Below the pieces are notes generated by a model. The model had not been told where the DNA came from and searched no databases. It saw only the letters and a list, made by a program, of their open reading frames with translations. A stretch of 64,000 nucleotides of DNA, from the NCBI GenBank assembly GCA_041665345.1, contig JBAYJA010000001.1:329206-393205 (forward strand), in the 5' to 3' direction. Below, piece after piece: positions 6,323-29,048 of this stretch. How positions within the stretch are numbered: the first letter of the stretch is position 1; each line of letters opens with the position of its first letter. The DNA is from Patescibacteria group bacterium. GTDB lineage: Bacteria; Patescibacteriota; Patescibacteriia; PEXW01. A program made the position numbers and the translations under genes.

Positions 6323-7006
6323 TTGACACGCATGGCTGACATCATACAGGTGCACCAGGTTTCCAAAGTGTACCAGGACGGGGATCGACAGATTAAGGCG
6401 TTAGATAACATAAGCTTGAAGGTAGCAGAAGGGGAGAGTGTAGCGATTGTGGGTTCATCCGGCAGTGGGAAGTCCACCCTGCTGCAGCTGGTAGGTGGGT
6501 TGGATACGCCAACCAGCGGGGAGATTACCGTGGGTGGGCAGCAGTTAGCTGAACTCTCGGACGACAGTCTATCCACCTTCCGGAACAAGACCATTGGGTT
6601 TGTCTTCCAGTTTTTTCATTTACATGATTACCTGACTGCGCAGGAGAACGTGGCACTGCCGTTGCAACTGGGCGGGGTGCACAGCGGAGAAGCCATGCGG
6701 CAGGCCAAAGTGATGCTGCAGAAAGTGCACCTGGAAGACCGGGCCAACCACAAACCCAAGATGATGAGCGGGGGTGAAATGCAGCGGGTGGCGATTGCTC
6801 GCGCATTGGTGAACAATCCGCAGGTAATTTTGGCAGACGAGCCAACCGGGAATTTGGACAAGCAGAATGCACTCTCGGTTTTGGATGCCTTTGACGAAAT
6901 TGCGCGCTCCGGGGTGAGCGTGGTTATTATTACGCACGATGAATCTATCAAGCAGCGATTCAGCCGGGTGATCCGCTTGGACAAGGGAGCGCTGGTAAAA
7001 TTCTAA
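6323..7006 (+). CDS. ABC transporter ATP-binding protein (MacB/LolD/FtsE-type)
   Basis: Walker A GSSGSGKST, signature LSGGEMQRVAIARAL, Walker B ILADEPTGNLD. Confidence 0.9.
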   Translation: MTRMADIIQVHQVSKVYQDGDRQIKALDNISLKVAEGESVAIVGSSGSGKSTLLQLVGGLDTPTSGEITVGGQQLAELSDDSLSTFRNKTIGFVFQFFHLHDYLTAQENVALPLQLGGVHSGEAMRQAKVMLQKVHLEDRANHKPKMMSGGEMQRVAIARALVNNPQVILADEPTGNLDKQNALSVLDAFDEIARSGVSVVIITHDESIKQRFSRVIRLDKGALVKF

Positions 7007-7010
7007 ATCT

Positions 7011-8849: not shown

Positions 8850-8854
8850 CCCAC

Positions 8855-9526
8855 ATGAAAATTCTCCTGGTGGAAGATGAAGAGAGTATCCGCGAAGTGG
8901 TGAAACGCTACTTGGAGCGCGCGGGTTTTCAGGTGGACGAAGCCGGGAGCGGACCCGTGGCTCTACTGAAAGCCAAGCAGGGATTTGATCTCATTATTTT
9001 AGATTTGAACCTGCCGAATTTGGACGGCGTGGAAGTGTGCAAGAAGATCCGTGAGACATCCAACGTCCCAATCCTCATGGCCACGGCACGGGTGGAAGAA
9101 GGCCAGGAACTTACTGGCTTGTCCGTAGGTGCGGATGACTACATCAAGAAGCCGTACTCACCCAAAGTGTTGGTGGCGCACGTCCAAGCTTTGCTCCGTC
9201 GGGCTAGCCAGCCGGGCAGCCGCAGCCGCGGGCAGGGGAGCATTACCTGTGATGACGAGCAAATGGCTTTGCGCCGCGGCGACGAAACCATTGGGCTTAC
9301 GGCCACGCAGTACCGCATTGCGCGGGCTCTGTTTACAAGCCCGGGCCGGATTTTTTCCCGCACCGAGTTGTTGGAAGCCAGCCGGAATGGGGACAGCGTA
9401 GGGGAGACCGATGAGCGGGTGATTGACGCGCATATCAAAAGTTTGCGTCGCCGCATTGAGGCAGACCAAGAGCAGCCCAAGCACATTCTCACTGTCGTGG
9501 GCGTCGGTTACAAAGCAGCTGTATGA
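8855..9526 (+). CDS. OmpR-family response regulator
   Basis: MKILLVEDEESIRE...DLIILDLNLP receiver domain plus winged-helix C-terminus; ATG at 8855 preferred over the longer ORF from 8732. Confidence 0.85.
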   Translation: MKILLVEDEESIREVVKRYLERAGFQVDEAGSGPVALLKAKQGFDLIILDLNLPNLDGVEVCKKIRETSNVPILMATARVEEGQELTGLSVGADDYIKKPYSPKVLVAHVQALLRRASQPGSRSRGQGSITCDDEQMALRRGDETIGLTATQYRIARALFTSPGRIFSRTELLEASRNGDSVGETDERVIDAHIKSLRRRIEADQEQPKHILTVVGVGYKAAV

Positions 9527-10644
9527 CATTCCAAATCTTCATTCGATCCATAGCATTCCGCGTTGGGGTGAGCGTTGCCCTGCTCTTCATTGTGCTGTTT
9601 GGGAGTTTGTACTTCTTCGTGGAGCGGCGCGGTGAACGAGCGTTTACCGATGTGGTGACCACCTGGAATGGCCGCTTTGGCATCATCACCCCGTTTGATG
9701 ATCCGCAGATGCCGTGGTCAAACCGCATTGCCGAGCCGCGCCAGGAGTTCCGCGCACGTTTCCGCAATTCACTCCTGTTCATTGGCGGGCTTGGTGTTTT
9801 GGGATCAGTGGCTATTGGTGCACTGGTCGCTTCCATGATCACCCGGCCGTTGCGGAAAGTGGGGGAGGGCATGCAGAAGTTGCGAGCCAGTGACTACAAC
9901 CACAAGCTTGCACCAGCTCCTGCTGCGGAAGTGGATGCCTTGGTCACAGAGTTCAACGCATTGACCGATGAATTGCGCCGGACCGATGAATTACGAAAAA
10001 CCATGATCTCCGACGTGTCGCATGAATTGGCAACGCCCATCACCAGTCTCATGGCGCAGCTGGAAGCCATAAGTGACCAAGTGGTTCCTTTGGACGTTGT
10101 GCGCATAGGGAAGTTGCGCACGCAGCTAGACCGGCTGCACAGCATGGTGGATGGCTTGCAAGAGTACACGCGTTTGCGCAGCCGGGCAGTGTCTTTGCAG
10201 CGGCAGATGGTTGACCTCCGACAAGTGGTGGACGCCGTGCTCAATACGCACGAGCAGACGATACGCACTGCACGCATGGCAGTCCATGTGGACATTGCGG
10301 CCGGTGCCACCCTGCAGGCTGACCCCAAATTGCTGGAGCATGTGCTGAACAATTTGGTTGCGAATGCATTGCGGTATAGCCAGGGGAAAACCCTTGCCAT
10401 TCGGCATACTCCCAACCAATTGGTGGTTGAAGATGACGGTGTGGGGATTCCCGCTGAGCACCGGCAAAATATTTTTGAACGTTTCTTCCGCATGGAGAAA
10501 AGCCGCAGCCGGGAAACTGGTGGGCTTGGTTTGGGGCTGGCAATAGTGAAGGAAATTGTGGAAGCGCACGGTTGGCGCATTCGGGCTGAGCAAAGCCAGT
10601 ACTCAACTGGCGCGGCTTTTGTTATTACTACACATCTTGGGTAA
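9523..10644 (+). CDS. sensor histidine kinase (2 TM, HAMP, HisKA, HATPase)
   Basis: H-box MISDVSHELATPITSL, N/G boxes in the C-terminus; start overlaps response-regulator stop (ATGA). Confidence 0.85.
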   Translation: MTFQIFIRSIAFRVGVSVALLFIVLFGSLYFFVERRGERAFTDVVTTWNGRFGIITPFDDPQMPWSNRIAEPRQEFRARFRNSLLFIGGLGVLGSVAIGALVASMITRPLRKVGEGMQKLRASDYNHKLAPAPAAEVDALVTEFNALTDELRRTDELRKTMISDVSHELATPITSLMAQLEAISDQVVPLDVVRIGKLRTQLDRLHSMVDGLQEYTRLRSRAVSLQRQMVDLRQVVDAVLNTHEQTIRTARMAVHVDIAAGATLQADPKLLEHVLNNLVANALRYSQGKTLAIRHTPNQLVVEDDGVGIPAEHRQNIFERFFRMEKSRSRETGGLGLGLAIVKEIVEAHGWRIRAEQSQYSTGAAFVITTHLG

Positions 10645-11333: not shown

Positions 11334-11819
11334 TTGGAAAGGTCTCCTTTCTGGTTTTTGCGTTTCAGCTGAGCTTACTCTTGTACGTAGTACCCGTCAA
11401 GAAAAAAAAATGACGGCAGGGTTGGGAGACCATGCCGCCGTTGTGTCGGGCTTTTTTGGGACCGCAGAACCCATTGTTTGTCCTGCAGCTTTCAAAGAGC
11501 TAGCCGATGACACTACCCGACGTAATGCAGGCAGAAGAAGGGTACAGGGAGCAGGGGAAAAGCGTCAAGAAAAAGACGGTAGTTTCTGGGAACTACCGTC
11601 CGTAGATGATTGAGTGTTAGCCGAAACGTGGTCTATTACTGCATCGGCTTTCAAAGAGCGAGCTCAGCGCCTACTCAATCAAGACGCAAGCAAGGGGAGT
11701 GTAGAATGGGATGCGAAGTGGGTCAATAAACAGTGGGGGTTGACTTCTTGGGAAAAACGTGTACGCTGACTTCTTCGGAAATGGAATTGTACATTATACA
11801 TGGTCAATATGGAGGTTCG

Positions 11820-12422
11820 ATGCTCAAGAAGGAGTTTCTCTCACAGCAGGAAATGGAATTCATTTATGAGAATATCCGCATTGCGTGGGAGCTGAAGGAA
11901 AAAGGACTTTTCGTCCCGATCAACCAAAAGCGAATGCATGAGCTGGTAGGGCGGGGTATTGCAGTGCCCGTATGCCCAGATGGTGACCACAGTCATGACA
12001 TGTTTAACCATCTCACTTCGTTCACTCGTCGGGTGCATGCTCCCGCATTGAACGGGGGAGCGGTTATGATGTCACCTCACCATCCGAAGTATCAGATTGA
12101 GGGGCAAGCGCTTTTCAACAGCCTTGACGGTGCACGTCAGGCCGGCAAACGCTATGGGAATGAGTATGGACTGTTTGGTTTTGAAACGCATCTTGTGTGC
12201 AAAGCAATGCTTGAGGAAATGCGAGGTATTGCTTCTTGTACGCAGTGCATTCTTGAAGGGAAAGATGACTTTATTACGCGGACGGGAATTTCTCCCAAAG
12301 CAACAATGGTTTTCATTCGAATCGACTGGACTCCCTTTGAGCAAAGGGAGGAGAAGAAGAAACGCCGTACCTATATAGTCAAGGGTAGTCGACGTGAGCT
12401 TCTGCGGCCGTATTTGCAGTAG
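11820..12422 (+). CDS. hypothetical protein
   Basis: ATG preceded by GGAGG (ORF open from 11733); no recognised domain. Confidence 0.45.
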   Translation: MLKKEFLSQQEMEFIYENIRIAWELKEKGLFVPINQKRMHELVGRGIAVPVCPDGDHSHDMFNHLTSFTRRVHAPALNGGAVMMSPHHPKYQIEGQALFNSLDGARQAGKRYGNEYGLFGFETHLVCKAMLEEMRGIASCTQCILEGKDDFITRTGISPKATMVFIRIDWTPFEQREEKKKRRTYIVKGSRRELLRPYLQ

Positions 12423-12436
12423 TTGATCTTTTGTTT

Positions 12437-12464
12437 GGACTGGTCATTGTGCCAGTCCTTTTCT
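12437..12464 (+). terminator. rho-independent terminator
   Basis: ggactgg-tcattgtg-ccagtcc hairpin followed by TTTTCT. Confidence 0.7.
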
Positions 12465-12475
12465 ACATTTCAATA

Positions 12476-12504
12476 TTGACAGGTAGCTGTGTGTTCCCTA
12501 CACT
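12476..12504 (+). promoter_or_regulatory. sigma70-like promoter TTGACA-N17-TACACT upstream of the Ehr-like operon
   Basis: Consensus -35, 17-nt spacer. Confidence 0.45.
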
Positions 12505-12610
12505 TGATGCGTCCCGGGCATCATTTCGGCCATCGTAACTACGTTTATCAGTTTTGCTATCCGCTTGCATTTTTTTGCAGGCATCATTCAATCTGGGTTG
12601 ATGTACGTCT

Positions 12611-13150
12611 ATGTTCACACTTTTTTTGAAGATATTTAGCACGCCGAAGACTGTCATCCCCGTCCAGGATTTTGACCGTGAGCAGGCGGCCATTCTGGCG
12701 GTCGGTGAGCGGTTACAGGAGCAGGTGAAACGCCTCTTCCGTGGTTCTTTGGCTATTCGGCAGGTGGACGCTGGTTCAGACAATGCGTGCGAGCAAGAAC
12801 TCGTCGCCCTTGGGAATGCTTTCTACGATGTAGAGCGTTTCGGTATCCACTTTGTGGCGTCGCCGAAGCATGCGGATATGCTTTTGGTGACTGGCCCCGT
12901 AACCCGGAACATGGCTGAAGCATTGCGGCGAGCGTACGCAGCCACGCCAGAGCCAAAAATTGTGGTGGCCGTTGGCGATGATGCAATCAACGGTGGGATT
13001 TTCAAAGGGTCATATGCGACGCATGATGGCGTTGGGAATGTCATCCCCGTGCACTACCAGATTCCGGGTGATCCACCTACGCCAAAGGTTATTATTTACC
13101 ACCTTCTCAAAATTTTGGAAGGACTCGAAAGAAAACCCACACGCACCTGA
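12611..13150 (+). CDS. NuoB / [NiFe]-hydrogenase small-subunit homolog lacking all Fe-S cysteine ligands
   Basis: Clear NuoB-type alignment (FYDVERFGIHFVASPKHADMLLVTGPVTRNMAEALRRAYAATPEPKIVVAVGDDAINGGIF...PGDPPTP). The conserved CC, SMGxCA and PGCPP positions read ...DNACEQ..., AVGDDA and PGDPP. Confidence 0.8.
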   Translation: MFTLFLKIFSTPKTVIPVQDFDREQAAILAVGERLQEQVKRLFRGSLAIRQVDAGSDNACEQELVALGNAFYDVERFGIHFVASPKHADMLLVTGPVTRNMAEALRRAYAATPEPKIVVAVGDDAINGGIFKGSYATHDGVGNVIPVHYQIPGDPPTPKVIIYHLLKILEGLERKPTRT

Positions 13151-13155
13151 GCACT

Positions 13156-15204
13156 ATGCTAGCTAACATTGCTACACCACTGGGTTTCGTCGCGCTCCTC
13201 CTCCTCTTCACCGTTGGGGCTATCGGTGCTTTGCTCCTTCATCGGCATGACCACCGAGCGAATGTGTGGGGTAGTCTTTTCGCAATCGCTGGTTCGGTGT
13301 GGGGCGTGCTTTTCGCCATTGCGGTACTCGTGGGCGGAAATGACATTGCTGCGGCAGTGCAGCTTTCTCCTTTCCCTTTGTTCACCTTCTCCGTGCACAT
13401 CGACAAGCTTTCCGCTTTCTTCCTTGCGGTCATTTCGCTCATCGCGCTGTTCTCCTCTACCTATGGCATAGGCTACGTGAAGCACTACTACAAGCAGTAC
13501 AGCATTGGCGCCCTAGGTTTTTTCTACAACCTGTTCATCGCAGGCATGCTCCTGGTCGTTTCCGCGTCAAACGGGATTTTTTTTCTCGTCGCCTGGGAAC
13601 TCATGTCCCTTGCTTCGTACTTCTTGGTGGTGTACGACCGTAAGGATGCACAGAACGTGAAAGCCGGGTTCCTCTACCTGGTCATGACGCATGTGGGGAC
13701 GGCCTTCATTATCATCGCATTCCTCTTGCTCTATACCCACACTGGGTCGTTTGACTTTGCGGCTATAAAGGCTGGCGCCGTGCTCATCCCGGCATCTATG
13801 AAGAATGCTATTTTCATTCTGGCAATGGTAGGCTTTGGCACGAAGGCTGGCATCATTCCATTCCACATTTGGCTGCCGAGCGCTCACCCCGCGGCACCTT
13901 CACACGTCTCCGCCTTGATGTCTGGCGTGATGATAAAGACCGGCATCTTCATGATGATCAGGCTTTTCCTGGACATTCTCCAGCCTGTCCCGGCATGGTG
14001 GGGGCTGACCGTCGTGGTGATCGGACTTGTTTCGACATTGCTGGGCGTGCTCTACGCATTGACCGAGCACGATATTAAACGTTTGTTGGCGTACTCTAGT
14101 ATCGAGAATATTGGCATCATCCTCCTGGGCGTGGGGAGCGCCCTCACATTCACCGCTCTGGGCATGCAGCCCCTGGCGCTCATCGGCCTGGTTGCGGCGC
14201 TCTTCCATACGCTCAATCATGCAACATTCAAGTCCTTACTCTTCCTCAGCGCTGGATCAGTCATCAACCAGACACATACGCGCAATATGGAAGAGTATGG
14301 TGGGCTGATGAAATATATGCCACAGACAGCGTTGTTCTTTTTGGTTGGCGCAATGGCTATTTCCGCTTTGCCGCCCTTCAATGGTTTCTTCAGCGAATGG
14401 CTGACCTTCCAAGCACTTTTTCAGGGGATTGCGGCGTTAGATTTTTACGCAAAGTGGATTTTCATTCTTGCCGCTGGTTCTCTGGCATTCACCGGTGGGT
14501 TAGCATTAGCATGTTTTGTAAAAGCCTTTGGTGCAACCTTCCTGGCCCGGCCGAGGAGTATTGCAGTGACGCACACGAAAGAATCTTCCCTCTCCCTGCG
14601 TGTCGGTATGGCTGCCCTCGCAGTATTCGCCCTGGTGTTCGGCGTATTCTCCGGACGTCTAACTTCATTCCTCAATGGTGTTGGTCGTGACCTGCAGGTG
14701 TTTCATTCCTCGACCTCCTTCATTTCCATAAATACTCACCAAAATTTGTCGGCTGGGCATTTTGCCTTCGTGTCTCCACTTGCGCTCTTCGTCTACCTCC
14801 TCATTGCACTGGTCATCGTCGTGCTCGGGGTAAAGTACCTGGTGAACCGCAAGCAGAAAGTGCACCTTGGCGCCACGTGGGATTGCGGGACAGATTTGAG
14901 CCCGCGCATGGAGGTTACTGCTACCGGTTTTTCGCATTCTATTGTTACCATCTTTCAGCGAGTGCTCCGGCCCAGCATCCAGCACGACATTGAGTACCGT
15001 GATGACCAGAGTCGCTACTTGCCGAAATCCAGAACGGTGACGCTTGGGGTGAGCGATCTCTACCATACGTACATCTACAACCCAATTCACACATTAGTGA
15101 CTACTCTTTCCGAACGGACGAAGCATGTCCAAGGTGGGAATATCAACGTCTACCTCCTGTACATCTTCATTGCGCTGCTCGCCGCTCTCGTCGTGATTCG
15201 ATAA
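13156..15204 (+). CDS. NuoL/MrpA/HyfB-like antiporter-type membrane subunit
   Basis: 682 aa, about 16 TM, complex I subunit L/M/N family motifs (…GFGTKAGIIPFHIWLPSAH…). Confidence 0.8.
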   Translation: MLANIATPLGFVALLLLFTVGAIGALLLHRHDHRANVWGSLFAIAGSVWGVLFAIAVLVGGNDIAAAVQLSPFPLFTFSVHIDKLSAFFLAVISLIALFSSTYGIGYVKHYYKQYSIGALGFFYNLFIAGMLLVVSASNGIFFLVAWELMSLASYFLVVYDRKDAQNVKAGFLYLVMTHVGTAFIIIAFLLLYTHTGSFDFAAIKAGAVLIPASMKNAIFILAMVGFGTKAGIIPFHIWLPSAHPAAPSHVSALMSGVMIKTGIFMMIRLFLDILQPVPAWWGLTVVVIGLVSTLLGVLYALTEHDIKRLLAYSSIENIGIILLGVGSALTFTALGMQPLALIGLVAALFHTLNHATFKSLLFLSAGSVINQTHTRNMEEYGGLMKYMPQTALFFLVGAMAISALPPFNGFFSEWLTFQALFQGIAALDFYAKWIFILAAGSLAFTGGLALACFVKAFGATFLARPRSIAVTHTKESSLSLRVGMAALAVFALVFGVFSGRLTSFLNGVGRDLQVFHSSTSFISINTHQNLSAGHFAFVSPLALFVYLLIALVIVVLGVKYLVNRKQKVHLGATWDCGTDLSPRMEVTATGFSHSIVTIFQRVLRPSIQHDIEYRDDQSRYLPKSRTVTLGVSDLYHTYIYNPIHTLVTTLSERTKHVQGGNINVYLLYIFIALLAALVVIR

Positions 15205-15206
15205 CC

Positions 15207-16133
15207 GTGACCATTTTTTTCTCCATACTCCAGGCCATCCTCATTCCTGCACTCTCGCCGTTGGGTGTTGGCTTGGTGAGGAAGCTGAAAGCAAGGTTGC
15301 AGAACCGTCAAGGGGCAAGTGTCCTGCAGCCGTATCGGGATTTGTGGAAGCTTTTTCACAAAGATGAAATTATCAGCACTGACGCGTCGTGGATTTTTCG
15401 TTACGCGCCGTTCATCCTCTTCGCGGTTACCCTGGTGGTGAGCGCGAGCATCCCATTCCTCACGGCCATTCCCGGCAGCACATTGACGAGCGACGTACTG
15501 GTTGTCATCTACACCCTAGCCATTGGGACATTTTTCTTGGCCTTGGCGGGGATGGATACCGGTGGGCCGTTCGGCGGTTTTGGCGCCAGCCGCGAAATGA
15601 CCGTATCCGCGTTGGCCGAAGGTGGGCTTATTTTTTCGCTCCTCACCATAGCTTTGCGGAGCGGTACCACCGACCTTTTTGCCATGTCGAGCGCCTCACT
15701 CATCTCCACTACCAGCTCGTACGTGCCTGTGGCCATGGCATTTGTCGGCTTCTTCATTGTGCTGCTGGCGGAAACTGCCCGGTTTCCATTTGACAATCCA
15801 GCCACACACCTGGAACTCACCATGATTCACGAAGCCATGATTCTGGAACACTCTGGAAAGCGGCTGGCGCTCATGGAGTGGGCCTCAGCAAACAAGCTTC
15901 TCATCTTCCTCTCGCTGGGCGCAAACATATTCTTTCCTTGGGGCATCGCACATAGCTTTGGGTTCGCCGAAATGCTTGTGAGTATTTTGGTTTTTGCGGT
16001 CAAGATGCTCATACTCTACACAGCAATTGCAGTACTGGAGTCGAGCATTGCGAAATTTCGTTTCTTCCGCCTCCCTGATCTACTCATGGTTTCTTTCATT
16101 TTGAACAGTGTGGCTATCGCTTTTCTAAAATAG
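15207..16133 (+). CDS. NuoH/HyfC/HycD-like membrane subunit (GTG start)
   Basis: 308-aa polytopic protein with the complex I subunit 1 pattern; adjacent to antiporter-like subunits. Confidence 0.7.
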   Translation: MTIFFSILQAILIPALSPLGVGLVRKLKARLQNRQGASVLQPYRDLWKLFHKDEIISTDASWIFRYAPFILFAVTLVVSASIPFLTAIPGSTLTSDVLVVIYTLAIGTFFLALAGMDTGGPFGGFGASREMTVSALAEGGLIFSLLTIALRSGTTDLFAMSSASLISTTSSYVPVAMAFVGFFIVLLAETARFPFDNPATHLELTMIHEAMILEHSGKRLALMEWASANKLLIFLSLGANIFFPWGIAHSFGFAEMLVSILVFAVKMLILYTAIAVLESSIAKFRFFRLPDLLMVSFILNSVAIAFLK

Positions 16134-16134
16134 T

Positions 16135-16782
16135 ATGGACACTACCCCTGAGCAAATCCTCCTGACGATATTCTTCCTCACGATTGTGATGCTGCACATC
16201 GTGAAGAAAAACTCTGGCACAGCCATCCTCTACGGCCTACAATCTCTCACTGTCGTTCTGCTGCTCGTGCATACGTTTGCGGCTACCAGGGATATTTCCA
16301 TTCTCATTATTGCCGCCCTTCTACTTATTGTGAAAGTCATTCTTGCACCAAGTTTCTTCCTGCGTCTCATTCGGAAGCACGAGCTAAAATTTTCAGTCAG
16401 CACGTACGTGAACCTACCGTTGACACTTGTCATGGTAACCGTTCTGACAGCCATTGCGCATTCCCAGGTTTTTGGCCCACTCATCAACCACATCCCTGCC
16501 AATCAGCAGTACTTGTCCTTGTCCCTGGCTGCGCTGTTCATCTCTCTCTTCCTCATTGTGAATCGGAAGGGTGCGCTTTCACAAATTGTTGGCATCCTCT
16601 CGCTGGAGAACTGCATCGTTGCCTTTGCACTTTTTGCCGGTTTGGAGCAGTCACCCGCATTGCAAATTGGCGTCCTCTTCGACATTTCAGTGTGGATTAT
16701 TATTGCCAGCGTGTTCATCACCATGATTCACAGGCATTTTGGCACGTTGGACGTGACGGAAATGCGGCACTTAAAAGAGTAA
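16135..16782 (+). CDS. HyfE/NuoK-like membrane subunit
   Basis: 215 aa, 6-7 TM; size and position typical for hydrogenase-4 component E. Confidence 0.6.
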   Translation: MDTTPEQILLTIFFLTIVMLHIVKKNSGTAILYGLQSLTVVLLLVHTFAATRDISILIIAALLLIVKVILAPSFFLRLIRKHELKFSVSTYVNLPLTLVMVTVLTAIAHSQVFGPLINHIPANQQYLSLSLAALFISLFLIVNRKGALSQIVGILSLENCIVAFALFAGLEQSPALQIGVLFDISVWIIIASVFITMIHRHFGTLDVTEMRHLKE

Positions 16783-16786
16783 CCGT

Positions 16787-18229
16787 ATGGAATTGGCACT
16801 CATATTTATCCCACTTCTGCTTGCAACCGCAATTGGCCTGCTCATAAAACGCCAGCGGGTCATTGAGTGGGTTTCGGTTGTCGCAACCGTGGTCGCGTTC
16901 ACCGCAAGTCTCTTGGTCGCCCGCCAGGTGGCTGTGCGTGGTGTGTACGCGGTTGGACAATTTTTTTCGGTGGATGCCCTTGGCGCAATTGTCATGCTCA
17001 TCATTGCGTTCGTTGGTCTGGCGGTAACTGCATACGCGGTATTCTACCTTCGCACGGAAATGACACATGGGATCATCGGTTTTCGTCGGGTGCGCCAGTT
17101 GTACGTGTTGCTCAGTCTTTTCTTAGTGGCAATGTTTTTGGCAGCCACCTCCAGCAGCCCCATTTTTACCTGGCTATCTATTGAGGCCACCACGCTGGCT
17201 ACTGCGTTCCTCATTAGTTTCTACAACAAGCCCACCGCAATGGAGGCGGCCTGGAAGTACCTGATCATTAATTCCGTTGGTCTGCTACTGGCATTTTTTG
17301 GCACGCTGCTGTACCTCACGGTGCTGGAAGGTTCAGGTGGGGCAGATTTTCCAACCTGGAGCAGCCTCCTTGCGAATGCTGCACACCTTGACCCGTTGAT
17401 TGCGAAAATCGCTTTCGTCTTCGCGCTCATTGGCTACGGGACGAAGATGGGTTTAGCCCCAATGCACACCTGGTTGCCAGATGCGCATAGCAAAGCCCCG
17501 GTGCCGATTAGCGCGCTCCTCTCGGGTGTGTTGCTCAACGTTGCGTTCTTCGCAGTCATCAAGTGCAAAGGGGTTACTGACCTCGCCGTGGGTCCAGATT
17601 TTTCTCAGAAGCTCCTCATCGCGTTTGGGGTGCTGACGATTGGGATTGCCGCGCTCATAGTCGTCATCCAAAAAAATTACAAGCGTTTGCTGGCATACTC
17701 AAGCATGGAGAATATGGGGATTCTGGCGCTTGGGTTTGGCTTCGGTGGGCTTGGCATTTTTGCGGCACTGCTCCACACCTTGTACCATGCTCTCCTGAAA
17801 TCCGCCTTCTTCCTGACCGTGGGGAACGTTTTCCTGAAGTACGGCACCACGAAAATTCACCAAGTGCAAGGTGCCCTTCGGATCCTTCCGGTAACGAGTG
17901 TGCTCTTGCTCATTGGTTTCTTGGCCATTACCGGCGCGCCACCGTTTGGGATATTCTTTACGAAAATATACATTCTGTCCGCTGGTATGCAGCAGCACCC
18001 TTTCGTCAGCATCATCGTGTTGCTTTTCATGGCCGTGCTCTTCTACGGCTTCTTCAAGCACATTACCAGTATGGTGTTTGGTACGGCCCCAGCAGACATG
18101 CAACCAGGTCAGCAAAGCGCATGGCTCACAATTCCACCCCTTGTCCTCGTCGTCATTGCGCTCTACCTGAGCCTCCACCTGCCAGCATTCCTCAACACCC
18201 TCGTCCATGCAGCGGCGGCAAAATACTAG
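16787..18229 (+). CDS. NuoN/NuoM/HyfF-like antiporter-type membrane subunit
   Basis: 480 aa, proton-conducting membrane transporter family motifs (…GYGTKMGLAPMHTWLPDAH…). Confidence 0.8.
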   Translation: MELALIFIPLLLATAIGLLIKRQRVIEWVSVVATVVAFTASLLVARQVAVRGVYAVGQFFSVDALGAIVMLIIAFVGLAVTAYAVFYLRTEMTHGIIGFRRVRQLYVLLSLFLVAMFLAATSSSPIFTWLSIEATTLATAFLISFYNKPTAMEAAWKYLIINSVGLLLAFFGTLLYLTVLEGSGGADFPTWSSLLANAAHLDPLIAKIAFVFALIGYGTKMGLAPMHTWLPDAHSKAPVPISALLSGVLLNVAFFAVIKCKGVTDLAVGPDFSQKLLIAFGVLTIGIAALIVVIQKNYKRLLAYSSMENMGILALGFGFGGLGIFAALLHTLYHALLKSAFFLTVGNVFLKYGTTKIHQVQGALRILPVTSVLLLIGFLAITGAPPFGIFFTKIYILSAGMQQHPFVSIIVLLFMAVLFYGFFKHITSMVFGTAPADMQPGQQSAWLTIPPLVLVVIALYLSLHLPAFLNTLVHAAAAKY

Positions 18230-18230
18230 T

Positions 18231-19808
18231 ATGCACGAACTCTTACCAGCCATGGAAAAGTATATCCCAAACGGTACTCGAGCAACGCAATATGGGAACG
18301 CATCGGCATTTGCGGTTCCCGTCGGGGACATTGTTCGCGTTGCTACAGACTTGCAGAAACGGCATGGGTTGACCTTCAAGTGCATTACCGCGACTGACGA
18401 CCGAAACGAAGGTGGGGGATTTACCTTGTGGTACATTTTTAGTGCACGGAACGAGCAAGCATTCGTCATCCCATACATTACCCTGAAGGATACCGATGTA
18501 TTTCCTTCATTGGCGAAGGTCATGCAAAGTGCATGGAACTTTGAAAAGCGAATTCGAAGCTTCTTTGGCCTGCAACTGAGTGGTCATCCAGATGGTCGCC
18601 AAACTGTACTCCATGAGAATTGGCCCACGAATCTTTTCCCGTTACGAAAAGATTTTCAGTGGCAGACCCGTCCTGCAACTGCGCAGGGTGCGTACCCCTT
18701 CCAAGTAGTGGAAGGTGAAGGGATCTACGAAATTCCCGTTGGTCCTATTCATGCTGGGATTATTGAGCCGGGACACTTCCGCTTTAGCGTGGCCGGGGAA
18801 GAGATCGTGCTCCTGGAGCCACGGCTTGGGTTTGTCCATAAGGGCAGTGAAAAGCTTTTTGAGCAAGTCTCACTGGCGGACAAAGTCCGGCTTGCAGAAA
18901 AAATTTCTGGCGATAGTTCATTCAGTCACTCGCTAGCCTTCTGCCTAGCAGTGGAACAACTAGGGAATATCATCGTACCAGAACGAGCAAGTTACCTACG
19001 CGTGATCTTTGCTGAACTGGAGCGGCTGGCCAACCACTTTGGGGATATTGGCGCGATGATGCTGGATACGGGTTTTAACTTTGGTGGGAGTAACGGTGCT
19101 CGCCTGCGAGAAATGGTCATGCAGCTCAACGAGCGCTTAACCGGCAGTCGATTCTTACGTGGTACCAACGTGGTCGGCGGGGTCACCAAGGATATTGCTC
19201 ACGATGCGCAGCAGCAACTCGCGAGTGACTTGCAGGCCATGAAGGAGGATTTTGAGGAAGTTATTGCCATTGCGGAGGGCAGCGTTTCGCTCACCAACCG
19301 TTTGAAAGGTACGGGTGTTTTGACGAACGCCGTTGCTGCAGAGCACGGGATTGTGGGCGTGTCAGCTCGCGCAGCGGGGATTGCCATAGATACGCGCATT
19401 GACTTCCCATACGCGGCGTACGCGAAACTTACTCTTGGTGACATCCCAGTGGAGCAGGCTGGTGATGCTCACGCCCGATTCCAAGTTCGGATAGCGGAAG
19501 CGCGGTCCGCAATGGAGATCATCCAGCAAGCACTTCGGGCTCTGCCCGTCGGCCCCATCGTTACTTCAGTTAACCATGTGGTATTGCAAAAAAGTACCAT
19601 AGCCGTTAGCGCCGTTGAGGGCTGGCGCGGCGAAATTGTATACTTCCTCCAGACTGATACCCAGGGGAATATCAGCCGCGTTGCACCACGGGATCCGTCA
19701 ATCCTCAATTGGGTCGCATTGAGCCATGCTGGGGTAGGCAATGTGGTGCCAGACTTCCCGCTCATCAACAAGAGTTTTAACCTCTCGTACGCCGGGTATG
19801 ACTTGTAA
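18231..19808 (+). CDS. fused NuoC-NuoD / HycE-like large subunit lacking NiFe-binding cysteines
   Basis: N-terminal NuoC-like part (GGGFTLWYIF), then the large-subunit core (PVGPIHAGIIEPGHFRFSV...LGFVHKGSEKL). The L1 motif position reads ISGDSSFSHSLA instead of RxCGxCxxxH; the C-terminus (…KSFNLSYAGYDL) has no DPCxxC. Confidence 0.8.
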   Translation: MHELLPAMEKYIPNGTRATQYGNASAFAVPVGDIVRVATDLQKRHGLTFKCITATDDRNEGGGFTLWYIFSARNEQAFVIPYITLKDTDVFPSLAKVMQSAWNFEKRIRSFFGLQLSGHPDGRQTVLHENWPTNLFPLRKDFQWQTRPATAQGAYPFQVVEGEGIYEIPVGPIHAGIIEPGHFRFSVAGEEIVLLEPRLGFVHKGSEKLFEQVSLADKVRLAEKISGDSSFSHSLAFCLAVEQLGNIIVPERASYLRVIFAELERLANHFGDIGAMMLDTGFNFGGSNGARLREMVMQLNERLTGSRFLRGTNVVGGVTKDIAHDAQQQLASDLQAMKEDFEEVIAIAEGSVSLTNRLKGTGVLTNAVAAEHGIVGVSARAAGIAIDTRIDFPYAAYAKLTLGDIPVEQAGDAHARFQVRIAEARSAMEIIQQALRALPVGPIVTSVNHVVLQKSTIAVSAVEGWRGEIVYFLQTDTQGNISRVAPRDPSILNWVALSHAGVGNVVPDFPLINKSFNLSYAGYDL

Positions 19809-20018
19809 GTATTTTCCAGTTCGCCTTTTCAGGTTGTCCACAGGTCCTTGGTACGCCAGGCTGGCAGGGGTGCAATTGTCTGTCAAAACTTTGGCAAAAT
19901 GCTGATCAGATAGGCATGGAGTCCACTTCTGCTTTTCTGCGTCCGGTGGTAGAATACGGGCATGGAGCGCCAATTGTTCCAGCCAAAAAAGCTGAATTTC
20001 AGGAGGCCCTGTTAGTCG

Positions 20019-20044
20019 CGCCCGCGTTCACCCGCGGGTTTTTT
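20019..20044 (+). terminator. rho-independent terminator
   Basis: cccgcg-ttcacc-cgcggg hairpin followed by TTTTTT, about 210 nt after the large-subunit stop. Confidence 0.7.
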
Positions 20045-20060
20045 GTAAACACTAAGTTCG

Positions 20061-20588
20061 TTGACAATTCGTTCAGCCAGAAAGGAGGTTGCCTTCCAAG
20101 ACCTACAACACACCATATGTCCTCACTTCGACATATTCTTTTTTGAGCCGGTTGGCATTGAGATTAATGGGCAGCTTTTCTGTCAGTTACCGCACAGGGT
20201 GCAGAAGACGTACCGGCACAAACACTTTGAGCTTGCCGGCATGCTTTTTGAGACCGTAGAAGAGGTCCTCATGGCTCGTTTGCTCATTGCCATGCGGATT
20301 CGCTTCATGCATCACATTCGTTTTCCCATAGCTGACAGCGCCGTCTGTCCGGATTTCACCTTAGACAAGATGTTCAAGTGGGAAACGAACGTTGGTGACC
20401 CACACCACGGCAAGATTTTTTTGAATATTGAAGTGAAGCGAACAAATGCTGCCATCCAGCGACATAGTGGAAAGTACACAACGCTTGAAGAAGCGTACGG
20501 TGTGCCAACACTCCTTTTGTCTGCTGTCGAAATCACAAAGTACCTTCATACTGGTGCATTACCAATTGTTGCCCTGCAGGCTGCATAA
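20061..20588 (+). CDS. PD-(D/E)xK nuclease-fold protein (DUF559/Vsr-like), paralog 1; start uncertain
   Basis: ...FPIADSAVCPDF... then ...IFLNIEVKR... gives a D...E-x-K arrangement; paralogous to the next gene; true start may be internal (possible GTG about 20209). Confidence 0.5.
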   Translation: MTIRSARKEVAFQDLQHTICPHFDIFFFEPVGIEINGQLFCQLPHRVQKTYRHKHFELAGMLFETVEEVLMARLLIAMRIRFMHHIRFPIADSAVCPDFTLDKMFKWETNVGDPHHGKIFLNIEVKRTNAAIQRHSGKYTTLEEAYGVPTLLLSAVEITKYLHTGALPIVALQAA

Positions 20589-20685
20589 CCAAACAACCGA
20601 GAACTGGAGGTCCGTCTTCCTTACCAAAAAAGCAAAAAGAGAATTTGAAAATCAGAAAAACGTTGCACTTTGCCCAACGTTACCT

Positions 20686-21144
20686 ATGTCGCGGAGTGGC
20701 TTTGAATTCCGCGGTGTGGTGTACACCCCACGCTGTAACCCAGAAAACCATCTTGGGAAACCATGTACCTGTGGTTTTCTAGAAACAGAAGAGGAGTTCC
20801 TCATTCAGGAGCTGCTCATTAGTATGGGTATTGAATCCATTCATCACATCCATTTCCCCATGGGAGATGACTGGGGAGTTAGCCCCGATTTCGTCTTCGA
20901 CACGCTCTTTGTGTGGGATGGAGGACGGGGCGATCCGTACAATGGTCAAATCCTTCTGGGTATTGAAGCAAAGTGCTCAGAAGGTGGCCGATCCACGAGT
21001 TACAAACGCTACCGCTTGCTAGCCATGAAACTCCGAGTTCCCATTCTCATTCTCACCCGAAGTGAAATTGAGAAATGGTTCAGCTATGGTCGTTTGCCAT
21101 TAAAGCGTGCAACCAGAGAGCAGTACGAAAAGTTGGTTGCGTAA
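20686..21144 (+). CDS. PD-(D/E)xK nuclease-fold protein (DUF559/Vsr-like), paralog 2
   Basis: ...FPMGDDWGVSPDF... and ...ILLGIEAKC...; ATG at 20686 (ORF open from 20446 but overlapping the previous gene). Confidence 0.55.
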   Translation: MSRSGFEFRGVVYTPRCNPENHLGKPCTCGFLETEEEFLIQELLISMGIESIHHIHFPMGDDWGVSPDFVFDTLFVWDGGRGDPYNGQILLGIEAKCSEGGRSTSYKRYRLLAMKLRVPILILTRSEIEKWFSYGRLPLKRATREQYEKLVA

Positions 21145-21151
21145 TTCTTTT

Positions 21152-21187
21152 GGCCTGTCACATCTCGTGACAGGCCTTCTTTTTTTG
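21152..21187 (+). terminator. rho-independent terminator
   Basis: ggcctgtcac-atctc-gtgacaggcc perfect hairpin followed by a T-run. Confidence 0.85.
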
Positions 21188-21199
21188 CTATACTCTCCA

Positions 21200-21330
21200 T
21201 GCAGGCATTTACGGAACTGAAGTGCCAAGGATGGGTTAGCCTGTTGGGCGTATGGGGATGTGAACAAACTCCTTGGAAAAGGAGAGCTAAGAACCTTGAG
21301 CAGGGCAACCCATCGCCCTGCTTTTTTTCA
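21200..21330 (+). ncRNA. candidate small structured RNA or cis-regulatory leader ending in an intrinsic terminator
   Basis: Non-coding stretch with internal stem (ccaagga...tccttgg) and terminal cagggc-aacccatc-gccctg hairpin plus T7; a promoter-like TTGACG-N17-TAGGGT follows for the next gene. Confidence 0.3.
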
Positions 21331-21394
21331 GCTTGACGAAGCTTTGGATTCTGCATAGGGTGGAGAGAGAAAAACTGAAAACCAAGGAGGCAAT

Positions 21395-21757
21395 GTGCCA
21401 GGTGTGTACTACGAATATGTACGACGATTGAAGATTGAAATGTTAAAAGCTGGAAAACTGAATATCTTTTACGTGAAGGTGTACTACTGCGTTGGGTTCA
21501 ATGGTGACGAAGAAACGTGCGATGCGTGGTACCAACCTTGCGCGCACTGTGGTCTGCAGAAGAAAAAGCAGCGGACGTACCGGCCGTACGTGGAGATGGT
21601 GAAAGTTGAAGTAGAAGCTACTCCAGAAAAAATCATCAAAGACCATTCAGCCATTTGGCAATTAGCAACGGTCGCGTTCTTCCAGGAGCCGGACATTAAA
21701 GATCGTCCAGCATACTGCAAGGATTGTCCAAAGACACCCGCAAAATCCAAGACCTGA
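21395..21757 (+). CDS. Cys-rich (zinc-ribbon-like) small protein
   Basis: AGGAGG RBS; CDAWYQPCAHCG ... CKDCP cysteine pairs. Confidence 0.45.
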   Translation: MPGVYYEYVRRLKIEMLKAGKLNIFYVKVYYCVGFNGDEETCDAWYQPCAHCGLQKKKQRTYRPYVEMVKVEVEATPEKIIKDHSAIWQLATVAFFQEPDIKDRPAYCKDCPKTPAKSKT

Positions 21758-22241: not shown

Positions 22242-22568
22242 ATGGCACATTTGCACTATGATAACGAGTTAGTGGTTGACGTGGAGGGGGTTGACTACCG
22301 GGTGCTCTACACAACCTCAATGGAGCCGGTGGATGATTACTGCGCTGACTGTCGGCAGTATACGGATCCAAAAAATACGGTTTTCCAAGGAAGGGTAATA
22401 ATCGTACACATTGAGGACACCAGTGCGGGAAATGAGCCGGTAGAACTCACGAGCGATCAGGGGAAAGCGGTACGCGAGGCCTTTTTGGAGGAGGATGAAA
22501 TTATCCAAAAACGGCAGATCCGGTGTCAGGAATGCTTAGAGGAAATGGGAAGGTCGGCCAGCAGTTGA
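22242..22568 (+). CDS. hypothetical small protein with CxxC pairs
   Basis: GGAGGG RBS; YCADC ... RCQEC. Confidence 0.45.
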   Translation: MAHLHYDNELVVDVEGVDYRVLYTTSMEPVDDYCADCRQYTDPKNTVFQGRVIIVHIEDTSAGNEPVELTSDQGKAVREAFLEEDEIIQKRQIRCQECLEEMGRSASS

Positions 22569-22577
22569 TCATTTTTT

Positions 22578-22609
22578 CCCCCACCTGGTGTCAGGTGGGG
22601 TTTTGTTTT
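22578..22609 (+). terminator. rho-independent terminator
   Basis: cccccacctgg-tgtc-aggtgggg hairpin followed by a T-run. Confidence 0.75.
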
Positions 22610-22687
22610 GTCTTGACCTTTTTGCTGATTGTGTTAGGCTCCAGGGAAACCGAAAATTGCACTTCACAATTATACCAAGGAGGGAAA

Positions 22688-23425
22688 ATGCAGAAGTGTT
22701 TCATTTCTCTGCTCGTGGTGATGTTTGCCATGATCCAACCCGCGGCCGCACAACGGAAAGCCCCAGTAACCGATGCTAAGATGTTTGAAGTCTCGTTTGC
22801 CTGGGGTCGTTCGCAGACATTTGCGTTTCAAACATTCCCCGGCAGTGCGCGAACCGCAAATGGCGCCTTGCTTACGGACACGACGCTTATCCTGCGTCGG
22901 CAACCCAGCTTTACGGCCATGGCCTCGTACCAGCCATTCAAGGTCATGCACGTTGGTGTCCAACTCACCAGTACGCCGGATGCACGGGCAATAGAAAGCC
23001 AGTACCCCGGCCACGCCGCCGCGGACGATTCCTGGTACAGCATTACGGCCACCGAAGTCCAGTGGGGGATTGTTGGGTTCATTACCACCCCCTGGAGCAA
23101 CCCGTCCAGCCGCGCCAGCTGGCTCATGTACCGCGCAAAGATTGGTGGAACGTTTGACTTGAGTGGTTATAGCATTGATGCCCTGGTGAGCCAGAGCAAC
23201 GGTTCGGTTGTGGAACAGCAGCTTGGCCGGATGCACGAGCATCGGTTCTTCGTCTCCCTGGAGACGGGTTTCAAAAATCCTTTTGGTCGGGCTGGCGCCG
23301 TCTTTGGTCACATTGGCTACGCCTACTCGTTGTACCAATTTGCGCACGAGGACGCTCCGGGTTTACGTTTTGCACCAAACACCCGCCACCGCCTCACTCT
23401 CGGCGTGGGTATCTCCATCTCCTGA
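22688..23425 (+). CDS. secreted hypothetical protein
   Basis: AAGGAGGG RBS then ATG; signal peptide ...QPAAA|QRKAP; beta-rich composition. Confidence 0.5.
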   Translation: MQKCFISLLVVMFAMIQPAAAQRKAPVTDAKMFEVSFAWGRSQTFAFQTFPGSARTANGALLTDTTLILRRQPSFTAMASYQPFKVMHVGVQLTSTPDARAIESQYPGHAAADDSWYSITATEVQWGIVGFITTPWSNPSSRASWLMYRAKIGGTFDLSGYSIDALVSQSNGSVVEQQLGRMHEHRFFVSLETGFKNPFGRAGAVFGHIGYAYSLYQFAHEDAPGLRFAPNTRHRLTLGVGISIS

Positions 23426-28984: not shown

Positions 28985-29017
28985 GACCGGCAGAAATGTC
29001 GGTCTTTTCTTATTTTT
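28985..29017 (+). terminator. rho-independent terminator
   Basis: gaccggcag-aaa-tgtcggtc hairpin followed by a T-rich run. Confidence 0.7.
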
Positions 29018-29048
29018 GCATTTTCACCAGGGAGCGTACACTGGCTGC

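Follow-up and report, generated by a model that had tools for sequence, protein, structure and literature searches.

The window analyzed here, a stretch of 64,000 nucleotides (nt) from a Patescibacteria group bacterium (assembly GCA_041665345.1, contig JBAYJA010000001.1, positions 329,206 to 393,205 of the forward strand), carries six co-directional open reading frames (ORFs) on the plus strand (12611 to 19808) that almost certainly encode the candidate phyla radiation (CPR)/Patescibacteria form of the Ehr (energy-converting-hydrogenase-related) complex. Including promoter- and terminator-like sites, the unit extends from 12476 to 20045 (Table 1). The gene order is B-L-H-E-N-CD, that is, NuoB-like, HyfB/NuoL-like, HycD/NuoH-like, HyfE-like, HyfF/NuoN-like, and fused NuoC-NuoD/HycE-like; subunit identities were taken from Pfam and NCBIfam profile matches, and the names EhrB, EhrL, EhrH, EhrE, EhrN, and EhrCD were assigned in this analysis. 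An earlier note, made from the letters alone, had placed a six-gene operon resembling complex I and group 4 hydrogenases at this location, with short or overlapping junctions. The ORFs and profile matches confirm the operon, and the junctions are indeed tight: EhrB through EhrN are spaced by 5, 2, 1, and 4 nt, and EhrN and EhrCD either overlap by 23 nt (ORF open at 18207) or lie 1 nt apart (ATG start at 18231).

Assignment to Ehr is based on a HycE-homologous large subunit (E 1.2e-68) that is missing both CxxC NiFe motifs, a pattern conserved in 52 homologs, and on the co-encoded NuoB-like, NuoH-like, and Mrp/Nuo antiporter-like subunits. As to placement within the Ehr clade, the comparison made here covered motifs and identity: the large subunit shares motifs and 41 to 47% identity with the non-CPR Ehr-like loci L046 to L048. 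Four subunits (two antiporter-like, one NuoH-like, and one HyfE/NuoK-like) are predicted to form a Hyf-type membrane arm, and the NuoB-like and NuoC-NuoD-like proteins would form a minimal peripheral arm. The earlier note had read the locus as an Ehr-type module that kept its antiporter and coupling subunits with no evident redox cofactor, and the absence of NiFe ligands, a single variable cluster ligand, and the lack of a ferredoxin-like subunit, detailed below, support that reading.

Former cofactor sites and the membrane arm

The best matches of EhrB are Pyrococcus furiosus MbhJ (E 1.8e-29) and Escherichia coli HycG (E 1.6e-28). A gap-free HMMER alignment places C35, C38, C102, and C132 of MbhJ opposite D57 (12779 to 12781), C60 (12788 to 12790), D124 (12980 to 12982), and D154 (13070 to 13072) of EhrB; the HycG alignment is equivalent, and in alignment to PSST of complex I the "CC" pair falls on A59-C60. 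Three of the four proximal [4Fe-4S] ligands are Asp in EhrB, and the one retained, C60, corresponds to the second Cys of the hydrogenase CxxC and of the complex I CC and is the single Cys in the whole protein. The claim of the earlier note that all four N2 cysteines were substituted was thus wrong by one, and its third ligand position needs correcting from D123 to D124 (D123 is present in many Cys-containing relatives, which read GDCA). The profile alignment that it had proposed as a check showed that the cysteines are not merely shifted.

Among 36 CPR-type EhrB sequences, no ligand position is conserved at ≥97%, and the second position varies (C, A, V, or E). The ligand patterns seen are DCDD, DCDN, TCDD, DADD, SEGD, NEGD, and TCGN, with a deeper subclade reading S/N-E-G-D. 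Together, the variable second position and the lack of any position at ≥97% conservation show that the site is not maintained for cluster binding in the CPR-type clade. C60 is kept here but not conserved among relatives, and EhrB offers no usable ligand set for a proximal [4Fe-4S] cluster; group 4 [NiFe]-hydrogenases have four small-subunit Cys for this cluster, compared with D57, C60, D124, and D154 here. EhrB is also the most conserved subunit of the complex, with the highest share of positions conserved at ≥97% (0.32) and the highest mean identity (0.68).

The large subunit, EhrCD, was aligned without gaps (HMMER) to E. coli HycE and P. furiosus MbhL; its residues are numbered from the ORF opening at 18207, and homolog alignments begin at residues 13 to 16. 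The HycE sequence RVCGICGFAH stands opposite K232-I-S234-G-D236-S237-S-F-S-H241 (KISGDSSFSH, 18900 to 18929), so that RVCGIC becomes KISGDS and both Cys become S234 and S237. The HycE motif DPCYSC becomes NLSYAG (N525-L-S527-Y-A-G530), with S527 and G530 in place of the two Cys, and the former second NiFe motif reads NLSYAGYDL (19779 to 19805). All four NiFe-ligand Cys are lost, as the earlier note had stated; neither of the two Cys that EhrCD does hold (residues 59 and 246) is at a ligand site, and the cysteines of the group 4 hydrogenase L1 (RxCGxCxxxH) and L2 (DPCxxC) motifs are absent from EhrCD. The motifs found in place of the NiFe site, (I/V)SGD(S/T)(S/T)FxH and NKSFNLSYxGNDL, are near-invariant across 52 sequences, including distant non-CPR Ehr. 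Invariant residues of EhrCD include loop H182 and E187, D236, H241, Y528, and D532, along with many other charged residues. Of these, E187 is the hydrogenase-type loop Glu (in EPGHFR), and the basic residue equivalent to the Arg beside cluster N2 is likewise kept, as K232 in EhrCD and as R in relatives. His38 and Tyr87 of Thermus Nqo4, which we take to be the quinone-contacting residues of complex I, correspond to I186 and G235 in the alignment, and EhrCD thus has neither of these quinone-contacting residues.

No gene for an electron-carrying partner was found. The operon has no NuoI/HycF-like gene, and no ORF of ≥40 amino acids (aa) across the window contains a CxxCxxCxxxCP motif. The earlier note had reported no ferredoxin-like (NuoI/HyfH) subunit; neither the operon nor the window contains one, and the 52 clustered genome loci described below show none as a recurrent neighbor. 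The same holds, in the operon, the window, and the 52 loci, for the HycF/HyfH/MbhN/EchF-type 2x[4Fe-4S] subunit of group 4 hydrogenases. A NuoEFG-type electron input module is absent from the operon, the window, and the homologous loci, and no Hyp maturation genes were seen among the window ORFs scanned. ORF clustering of the 52 genome loci returned only the six genes themselves, atp genes, UvrD-like helicases, and ABC ATPases as recurrent members. No redox partner recurred among them, and the screen of the 80 metagenome loci covered only Ehr, atp, and three other queries. Nor is the locus part of a larger Fe-S operon, the other outcome that would have refuted the earlier note: a promoter-like site and a terminator delimit it, and the unit is kept in ~45 genomes.

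The membrane arm presents a different picture. EhrL passes the curated HyfB equivalog cutoff (675.6 versus 667 bits) and aligns to HycC (E 3.1e-79), to the bona fide antiporter subunit MrpA (E 1e-46), and to MbhH. Its E148 (transmembrane helix 5 [TM5]), K230 (TM7), K261 (TM8), H351/H355/K359 (TM11), and E414 (TM12) match MrpA, MbhH, and HycC residue by residue, and these canonical charged residues are invariant in 38 sequences. The antiporter-like subunits align to MbhH and MbsH with the same Glu/Lys/His set; in EhrN, E133, K220, H334, and K338 are invariant, K393 is present, and the usual TM8 Lys is replaced by N251. EhrH matches HycD (E 1.8e-44), and its TM5-TM6 loop reads FPFDNPATHLELTMIHEAMILEHSG. 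This acidic loop is conserved, with D196, H201, E203, H208, E209, and E214 invariant, and two of the three HycD loop glutamates are A and H in EhrH. EhrE matches NF008556 (E 4.5e-17) and PF00420 (E 1.6e-5), with K67 and E158 invariant. Overall, the residue set for ion translocation is intact in the membrane arm.

Relatives, selection, and ATP synthase linkage

Homologs of EhrB are numerous: all of at least 8,000 scored candidates were significant. The best 120 clusters are 69 to 87% identical and, where named, nearly all belong to CPR (e.g., Paceibacterota, Nomurabacteria, Magasanikiibacteriota, and Staskawiczbacteria). Searching a single genome for each species gave 52 loci, almost all from CPR; a few contigs labeled as other phyla but with CPR-type sequence may be binning errors. 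The order B-L-H-E-N-CD is kept in ~45 of these 52 loci, and the pattern of ligand loss recurs in >100 homologs. The most distant genome loci, L046 and L047 (Nitrospirales-type) and L048 (Clostridiaceae-labeled), have the same Cys-less large-subunit motifs (SGDTT..., NLSYAGNDL) together with a small subunit that retains all four cysteines (GSCNACE, GDCA, and PGCPP) and whose gene follows the large-subunit gene. Among the 80 metagenome loci, 56 were Cys-poor (≥64% identity to the query) and 24 had all four cysteines (CCCC; ≤65% identity). The Cys-poor patterns were DCDD (25 loci), DCDN (13), TCDD (7), DADD (3), SCDD (3), DVDD (2), and others (3). The 150 nearest 50%-identity representatives from 1.8 billion proteins comprised ~110 CCCC or CCCC-like fragments and ~30 Cys-poor sequences. 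Loss of the Fe-S ligands thus appears to be derived and specific to the CPR-type clade plus a few independent branches, including Chloroflexota, and the nearest non-CPR Ehr keep CCCC.

A neighbor-joining tree of 130 small-subunit representatives (115 columns), which is crude and makes the number of independent losses approximate, did not recover the Cys-poor sequences as monophyletic, and monophyly was rejected. They fell into the clade of the query (9 members), a clade with DVDD/DEDS/DDDS (6 members), a clade with xSSD (3 members), and four singletons. Three singletons were nearer to a CCCC protein than to the query: P0124 (DAAD; Chloroflexota; distances of 0.24 versus 0.33), P0139 (SAES; Dehalococcoidia; 0.19 versus 0.42), and P0180 (ECED; 0.28 versus 0.45). 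A Chloroflexota metagenome-assembled genome (L056:10001-17536) has the same B-L-H-E-N-CD order, a Cys-free small subunit (DAAD), and a large subunit that reads RISGDTSFSH and NKSFDLSYSGNDL, which indicates that the cofactor-less form is not confined to CPR; in the same crude tree this small subunit lies nearer to a CCCC protein than to the CPR clade. The acidic (Asp/Glu) replacements are possibly convergent, and selection for negative charge is a lead, not a result, considering the crude tree and the patterns in which acidic residues are sparse or absent. In a more distant variant of high GC content (L057:5312-12948), the order is H-E-N-CD-B-L, a DEDS-type small subunit is fused to an N-terminal domain with a faint ferredoxin-like match and a CILCGRC motif, and the large-subunit motifs differ (RTEGVASVAH and ASFGLSVAGVAL).

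In comparison with the closest relative, L058 (79 to 88% aa identity), the ratio of nonsynonymous to synonymous divergence (dN/dS) was 0.046 to 0.079 for all six genes; dS was 1.1 to 2.2 and partly saturated, which makes these ratios approximate. All six genes are, on this evidence, under strong purifying selection. The possibility of a functionless hydrogenase operon in decay, a process that would also be expected to remove metal ligands, is effectively refuted and can be set aside with near certainty, considering the six intact ORFs with tight junctions, dN/dS of 0.05 to 0.08 at dS of >1, residue conservation, a gene order conserved in ~45 very small genomes, and thousands of homologs.

The F1Fo ATP synthase was the only energy-related recurrent neighbor in the ORF clustering of the 52 genome loci. 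In about one in seven CPR-type loci the Ehr operon abuts the ATP synthase operon, and in one case it is nested within it. The genes atpA-G-D-C lie directly upstream on the same strand in L013, L017, L026, L028, and L029, with atpC of L026 ending 3 nt before EhrB, and a full atpIBEFHAGDC operon ends 9 nt before EhrB in L055. In L020 and L050 the atp genes, again upstream on the same strand, stand at a distance of one to three genes, and in L041 and L042 they lie downstream. In a groundwater metagenome (L106:5554-19025), atpB-E-F-H-A-G, ehrB-L-H-E-N-CD, and atpD-C follow one another on one strand with gaps of ≤25 nt, and the EhrB pattern is DADD, with no Cys at any ligand position. In the metagenome set, 8 of the 56 Cys-poor loci have atp genes beside EhrB, compared with 0 of the 24 CCCC loci, many of the contigs being too short to tell. 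No atp genes were found in the window by tblastn. The chance of finding an atp operon within 10 kb in a ~1-Mb genome is an estimated few percent. The observed linkage of 10 to 20%, in at least four arrangements, exceeds this estimate, with the limitation that shared ancestry keeps the loci from being independent observations.

In four of the linked ATPases (L042, L055, L106, and L107), the c subunit was without the Gln/Ser-Thr residues that we take to be a Na+-binding signature. Na+ coupling of the linked ATPases was rejected on these grounds, and the enzymes are probably H+-coupled, which bears neither for nor against Na+/H+ exchange by Ehr. Genes that follow the operon in individual lineages include a Na+/H+ exchanger (L050) and a CBS protein with a CitMHS/ArsB-type transporter (L017 and L020), with the exchanger and the transporter directly downstream, and ComEC (L026 and L028).

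Proposed function and competing explanations

We tentatively favor a redox-independent, Mrp-like cation/proton translocator that serves an ATPase-based ion circuit, a reading that we consider plausible and a little short of probable. Starting from the observed gene content, ligand loss, conservation, selection, and, in some relatives, atp linkage, we infer that ions are moved, and the ions, their direction, and the role of the peripheral arm might be as follows. The complex would no longer perform redox chemistry. The antiporter-like subunits and the NuoH/HyfE "E-channel" would move H+ against Na+ or K+ through the chain of Glu, Lys, and His residues, and the peripheral arm, its former metal sites now polar or acidic, would form or gate the cytoplasmic entrance of the E-channel. 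It is possible, and here we speculate, that carboxylates take the place of the lost cluster, whether to fill the space structurally, held by a salt bridge to K/R232, or to serve as a control site that is titrated or binds cations. In a fermenter that lacks a respiratory chain, an H+-type F1Fo ATPase might build the proton gradient by hydrolyzing ATP; Ehr would then convert this gradient or regulate it, with pH or Na+ homeostasis or the interconversion of gradients as the purpose.

Several points weigh against an Mrp-like translocator. Linkage to ATP synthase occurs in only ~10 to 20% of loci and not in this window, and the related genomes in the sample are not independent. The function of Ehr is repeatedly stated to be unknown in the literature, and no transport assay is known for any Ehr. 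Mrp antiporters work without any peripheral arm, whereas one is kept here, and this is where the proposal is weakest. EhrB, cluster-less yet the most conserved protein, argues for a role of the peripheral arm beyond scaffolding. The replacement motifs of the large subunit, common to non-CPR Ehr with a CCCC small subunit, look like a ligand-binding or catalytic pocket rather than filler. Finally, the Asn at the TM8 Lys position of EhrN (N251) and the two missing loop glutamates of EhrH suggest that the coupling path is modified.

The strongest alternative is a pump powered by nonredox chemistry or an ion-driven enzyme, which we regard as rather unlikely. The conserved polar pocket at the former NiFe site (S234, D236, S237, H241, Y528, D532, and loop H182 and E187), possibly joined by the Asp-rich site of the lost cluster, would bind a small substrate or metal. 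This binding, or a hydrolysis or protonation step, would then take over from electron transfer in setting off the conformational or electrostatic wave known from complex I; the reverse, an ion gradient driving chemistry, would also be possible. The near-invariance of the pocket motifs over 52 sequences, distant non-CPR Ehr included, fits this scheme, as do the many invariant charged residues of EhrCD and the conservation of EhrB despite cluster loss. Changes from Cys to Asp/Glu in separate branches (DAAD, SAES, ECED, and DVDD/DEDS/DDDS) hint at selection for negative charge over random decay. However, the branch structure comes from the crude 115-column tree and acidity at the four ligand positions is not uniform (none of the residues is acidic in TCGN, and two are in SEGD and NEGD). 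With K232 or R kept, carboxylates may simply fill and salt-bridge a vacated cavity. There is no candidate substrate, and the subunits carry no domain beyond those of HycE/HycG.

It is improbable, more so than nonredox chemistry, that the complex is still a redox enzyme, either through a metal center on C60 and carboxylates or through a docked soluble partner, encoded elsewhere, that would drive ion pumping as in other Ehr and in MBH, MBS, or FHL. There are precedents for one Asp ligand on a [4Fe-4S] cluster, and Ehr from outside CPR, which retain CCCC in the small subunit, are assumed to couple to redox chemistry. In the closest relative, a separate NiFe hydrogenase large/small pair (L058:1-1464) is encoded on the opposite strand, ~9 kb upstream of the operon; the scanned ORFs of the window included no such pair. 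Against a redox enzyme, three of four ligands are replaced, and many relatives have A, V, or E instead of the last Cys, the Cys-less DADD of the atp-nested locus among them. There is no NuoI-like relay, NiFe site, quinone ligand set, or conserved partner gene in the flanks examined, and electrons have no route from the surface into the pocket when every cluster is missing. The docked soluble partner that the earlier note had offered as a candidate loses ground for the same two reasons, the absent conserved neighbor and the absent electron path.

Another candidate of the earlier note, a CO2 hydration-type role, fares worse still. Antiporter-like PF00361 subunits are the energy-coupling parts of NDH-1MS (CupA) in cyanobacteria and of DabAB, and vectorial CO2 hydration or another solute conversion might be imagined by analogy. 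We consider this very unlikely: no carbonic anhydrase-, Cup-, or DabA-like neighbor recurred in the 52 loci or among the called genes inspected elsewhere, the DabA or CupA/CupB partner that accompanies the PF00361 subunit in DAB/NDH-1MS was absent among the flank ORFs and genes inspected, and NDH-1MS itself is still redox-driven.

A more ambitious scheme may also be put forward, which we think rather unlikely as a whole. The operon would then encode an electron-free complex I-type converter with its entire "redox" arm under strong selection, in which the carboxylates of the ghost Fe-S site (with roughly the charge of a reduced cluster) and the former NiFe pocket act as a titratable, cation-binding, or substrate-binding trigger that drives or gates the antiporters. 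Given operons that adjoin the F1Fo genes and, in one case, sit inside them, the two machines together would make up the complete chemiosmotic circuit of many CPR, and the same arrangement would have arisen independently in Chloroflexota.

Comparison with known systems helps to place the operon. The described examples of Ehr include Geobacter sulfurreducens GSU0739-45, Mycobacterium tuberculosis Rv0082-87, Ehr of Nitrospira and Margulisbacteria, and the CPR Ehr clade (PMC7304191). As in other Ehr, a large subunit lacking the NiFe Cys is combined with NuoB-like, NuoH-like, and antiporter-like subunits, and the SGD(S/T)(S/T)...H and NLSYxGNDL motifs are shared with L046 to L048. Unlike the nearest non-CPR Ehr (CCCC, small-subunit gene after the large), three of the four ligand positions are Asp and the order is B-L-H-E-N-CD; partners proposed for other Ehr, such as formate dehydrogenase with NuoE/F-like genes, are absent. 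The best matches for four subunits are E. coli HycE, HycG, HycC, and HycD (PDB 7Z0S), and HyfE-like and HyfF-like proteins are present. In contrast to E. coli Hyf/Hyc, the operon has no NiFe site, proximal cluster, HycF/HyfH ferredoxin-like subunit, HycB, or formate dehydrogenase. A small subunit closest to MbhJ and a peripheral module on an Mrp-like module recall P. furiosus MBH/MBS (PDB 6CFW and 6U8Y); those complexes, however, are ferredoxin-driven with three [4Fe-4S] clusters (MBH also with NiFe) and have a full set of Mrp-type small membrane subunits, neither of which is found in the operon.

With the Mrp antiporter (Bacillus pseudofirmus, PDB 7QRU), the operon shares the antiporter-like fold, which Mrp uses independently of redox chemistry, and the TM5 Glu, TM7/TM8 Lys, and TM11 His/Lys common to EhrL and MrpA. 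Mrp itself has seven subunits (MrpA to MrpG) and no NuoH, NuoB, NuoC, or NuoD homologs, whereas equivalents of MrpB, MrpE, MrpF, and MrpG are absent here. Of the mrpA-G set only MrpA/D-like and MrpC/NuoK-like homologs were found, and the proposal is that the complex may work like Mrp, not that it is a member. Complex I (NDH-1) is matched by homologs of NuoB, C, D, H, K (in part), L, and N, and an L-shaped architecture is expected. The operon differs from it in lacking NuoE, F, G, and I, an N2 ligand set, the quinone His/Tyr, and separate NuoA and NuoJ genes.

Jaffe 2020 (PMC7304191) described the CPR sequences as a monophyletic clade within Ehr without large-subunit metal-binding cysteines that "likely cannot interact with H2," and large-subunit cysteine loss in CPR Ehr is therefore a rediscovery of a published finding. 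That paper is silent on the Ehr small subunit, the antiporter subunits, and ATP synthase. We found no report of Fe-S loss in CPR Ehr small subunits or of Ehr-ATP synthase linkage, in a literature search that excluded the Ehr-defining Marreiros 2013 and is not proof of novelty. Within the literature searched, several points appear to be new: no redox cofactor set remains at all, this state is clade-specific and may have arisen convergently, the residues for transport are intact, purifying selection is strong, and the operon is linked to the ATP synthase.

CPR make up a very large part of bacterial diversity and generally keep the ATPase (complex V) while lacking respiratory chains (PMC13293708). 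A conserved, atp-linked Ehr is a candidate for the missing partner in membranes with ATP synthase only, and an electron-free circuit, if true, would explain how such cells handle ion gradients. It is debated in the field how events at the quinone or NiFe site reach the antiporter modules; an electron-free six-subunit machine with NuoB/C/D/H and membrane charge relays would be a minimal object for studying what the peripheral arm contributes beyond electron transfer. In addition, the labels that these genes now carry, "NADH-quinone oxidoreductase subunit B" or "Ni,Fe-hydrogenase III small subunit," can mislead metabolic reconstructions into inferring respiration or H2 metabolism where neither is possible.

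Operon boundaries and surrounding genes

Table 1. Positions in the window of the six Ehr genes and of the candidate transcription signals around them
Feature	Position	Strand	Description
Terminator-like hairpin	12437..12458	+	8-bp stem then TTTTCT; ends upstream gene 11733-12422; marks 5' boundary of unit
Sigma-70-like promoter candidate	12476..12504	+	TTGACA-17-TACACT; best match (10/12) in 11600-20600
EhrB	12611..13150	+	PF01058 (89.6 bits); 179 aa; NuoB/HycG/MbhJ-like small subunit
EhrL	13156..15204	+	PF00361; 682 aa; HyfB/HycC/NuoL/MrpA-like antiporter-like subunit
EhrH	15207..16133	+	PF00146; 308 aa; HycD/NuoH-like subunit
EhrE	16135..16782	+	NF008556 and PF00420; 215 aa; HyfE-like, NuoK-like C-terminal half
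EhrN	16787..18229	+	PF00361; 480 aa; HyfF/NuoN/MbhH-like antiporter-like subunit
EhrCD	18231..19808 (ORF opens 18207)	+	PF00329 and PF00346; fused NuoC and NuoD/HycE-like large subunit
Intrinsic-terminator-like hairpin	20020..20045	+	GCCCGCG-TTCACC-CGCGGGT then TTTTTT; 7 pairs, 6 GC

The single promoter and single terminator proposed in the earlier note are both suitably placed, but sites of these kinds are not more numerous in the region than expected by chance (promoter-like, 10 versus 7.4 ± 3.0; terminator-like, 11 versus 11.3 ± 4.0), and it is their placement that supports the candidates. Between the EhrCD stop and the terminator hairpin lie ~210 nt of apparently noncoding sequence (19809 to 20019), within which an ATG at 19916 opens a frame of ~74 codons running through the terminator. 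A scan of 11500 to 21500 against Rfam found no RNA family at E ≤ 0.1. AT skew is -0.18 to -0.20 across 12 to 18 kb versus ~0 elsewhere in the window; the negative skew over 12611 to 18229 is consistent with T-rich codons of hydrophobic membrane proteins and not with a replication signal.

The flanks of the operon encode an ABC/FtsX pair, a response regulator and histidine kinase, a protein with a weak heme oxygenase-like match, unknowns, a PIG-L deacetylase, and an ABC exporter, and housekeeping genes (AddA/UvrD-like helicase, PheRS, GyrB, GatB, and ThyX) lie farther away in the window. The ABC ATPase and FtsX permease genes (6323 to 8849) precede those for the OmpR-type response regulator and HAMP/HisKA histidine kinase (8732 to 10644), which end ~2 kb upstream of the operon. 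Two-component regulation of the operon was considered and is not claimed, as a regulator and kinase occur upstream in L014 and a kinase in L015 with only 24 to 34% identity. ORFs 11733-12422, 20061-20588, 20446-21144, 21395-21757, and 22523-23425 had no Pfam match. As candidate partners these unmatched flank ORFs were rejected because they are not conserved beside homologous operons, with the weak exception of 38% identity over ~40 aa in L007.

A UvrD-helicase/PD-(D/E)XK (AddA-like) gene lies 13.6 kb downstream of the operon (33407 to 36424). At least nine other loci (e.g., L012, L020, L050, L053, and L055) carry a homolog within a few kilobases downstream of their Ehr operon, which suggests eroded ancestral synteny. 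The GC content is lower at 26 to 34 kb (0.45 to 0.49) than elsewhere in the window (0.51 to 0.57), and ORF 29016-29714 has a weak match to an IS200-like Y1 transposase (E 2.7e-6). A 527-aa ORF (52858 to 54441) with two separate ThyX (Thy1) domain matches looks like a double-length tandem ThyX, compared with the usual single-domain protein of ~220 to 250 aa.

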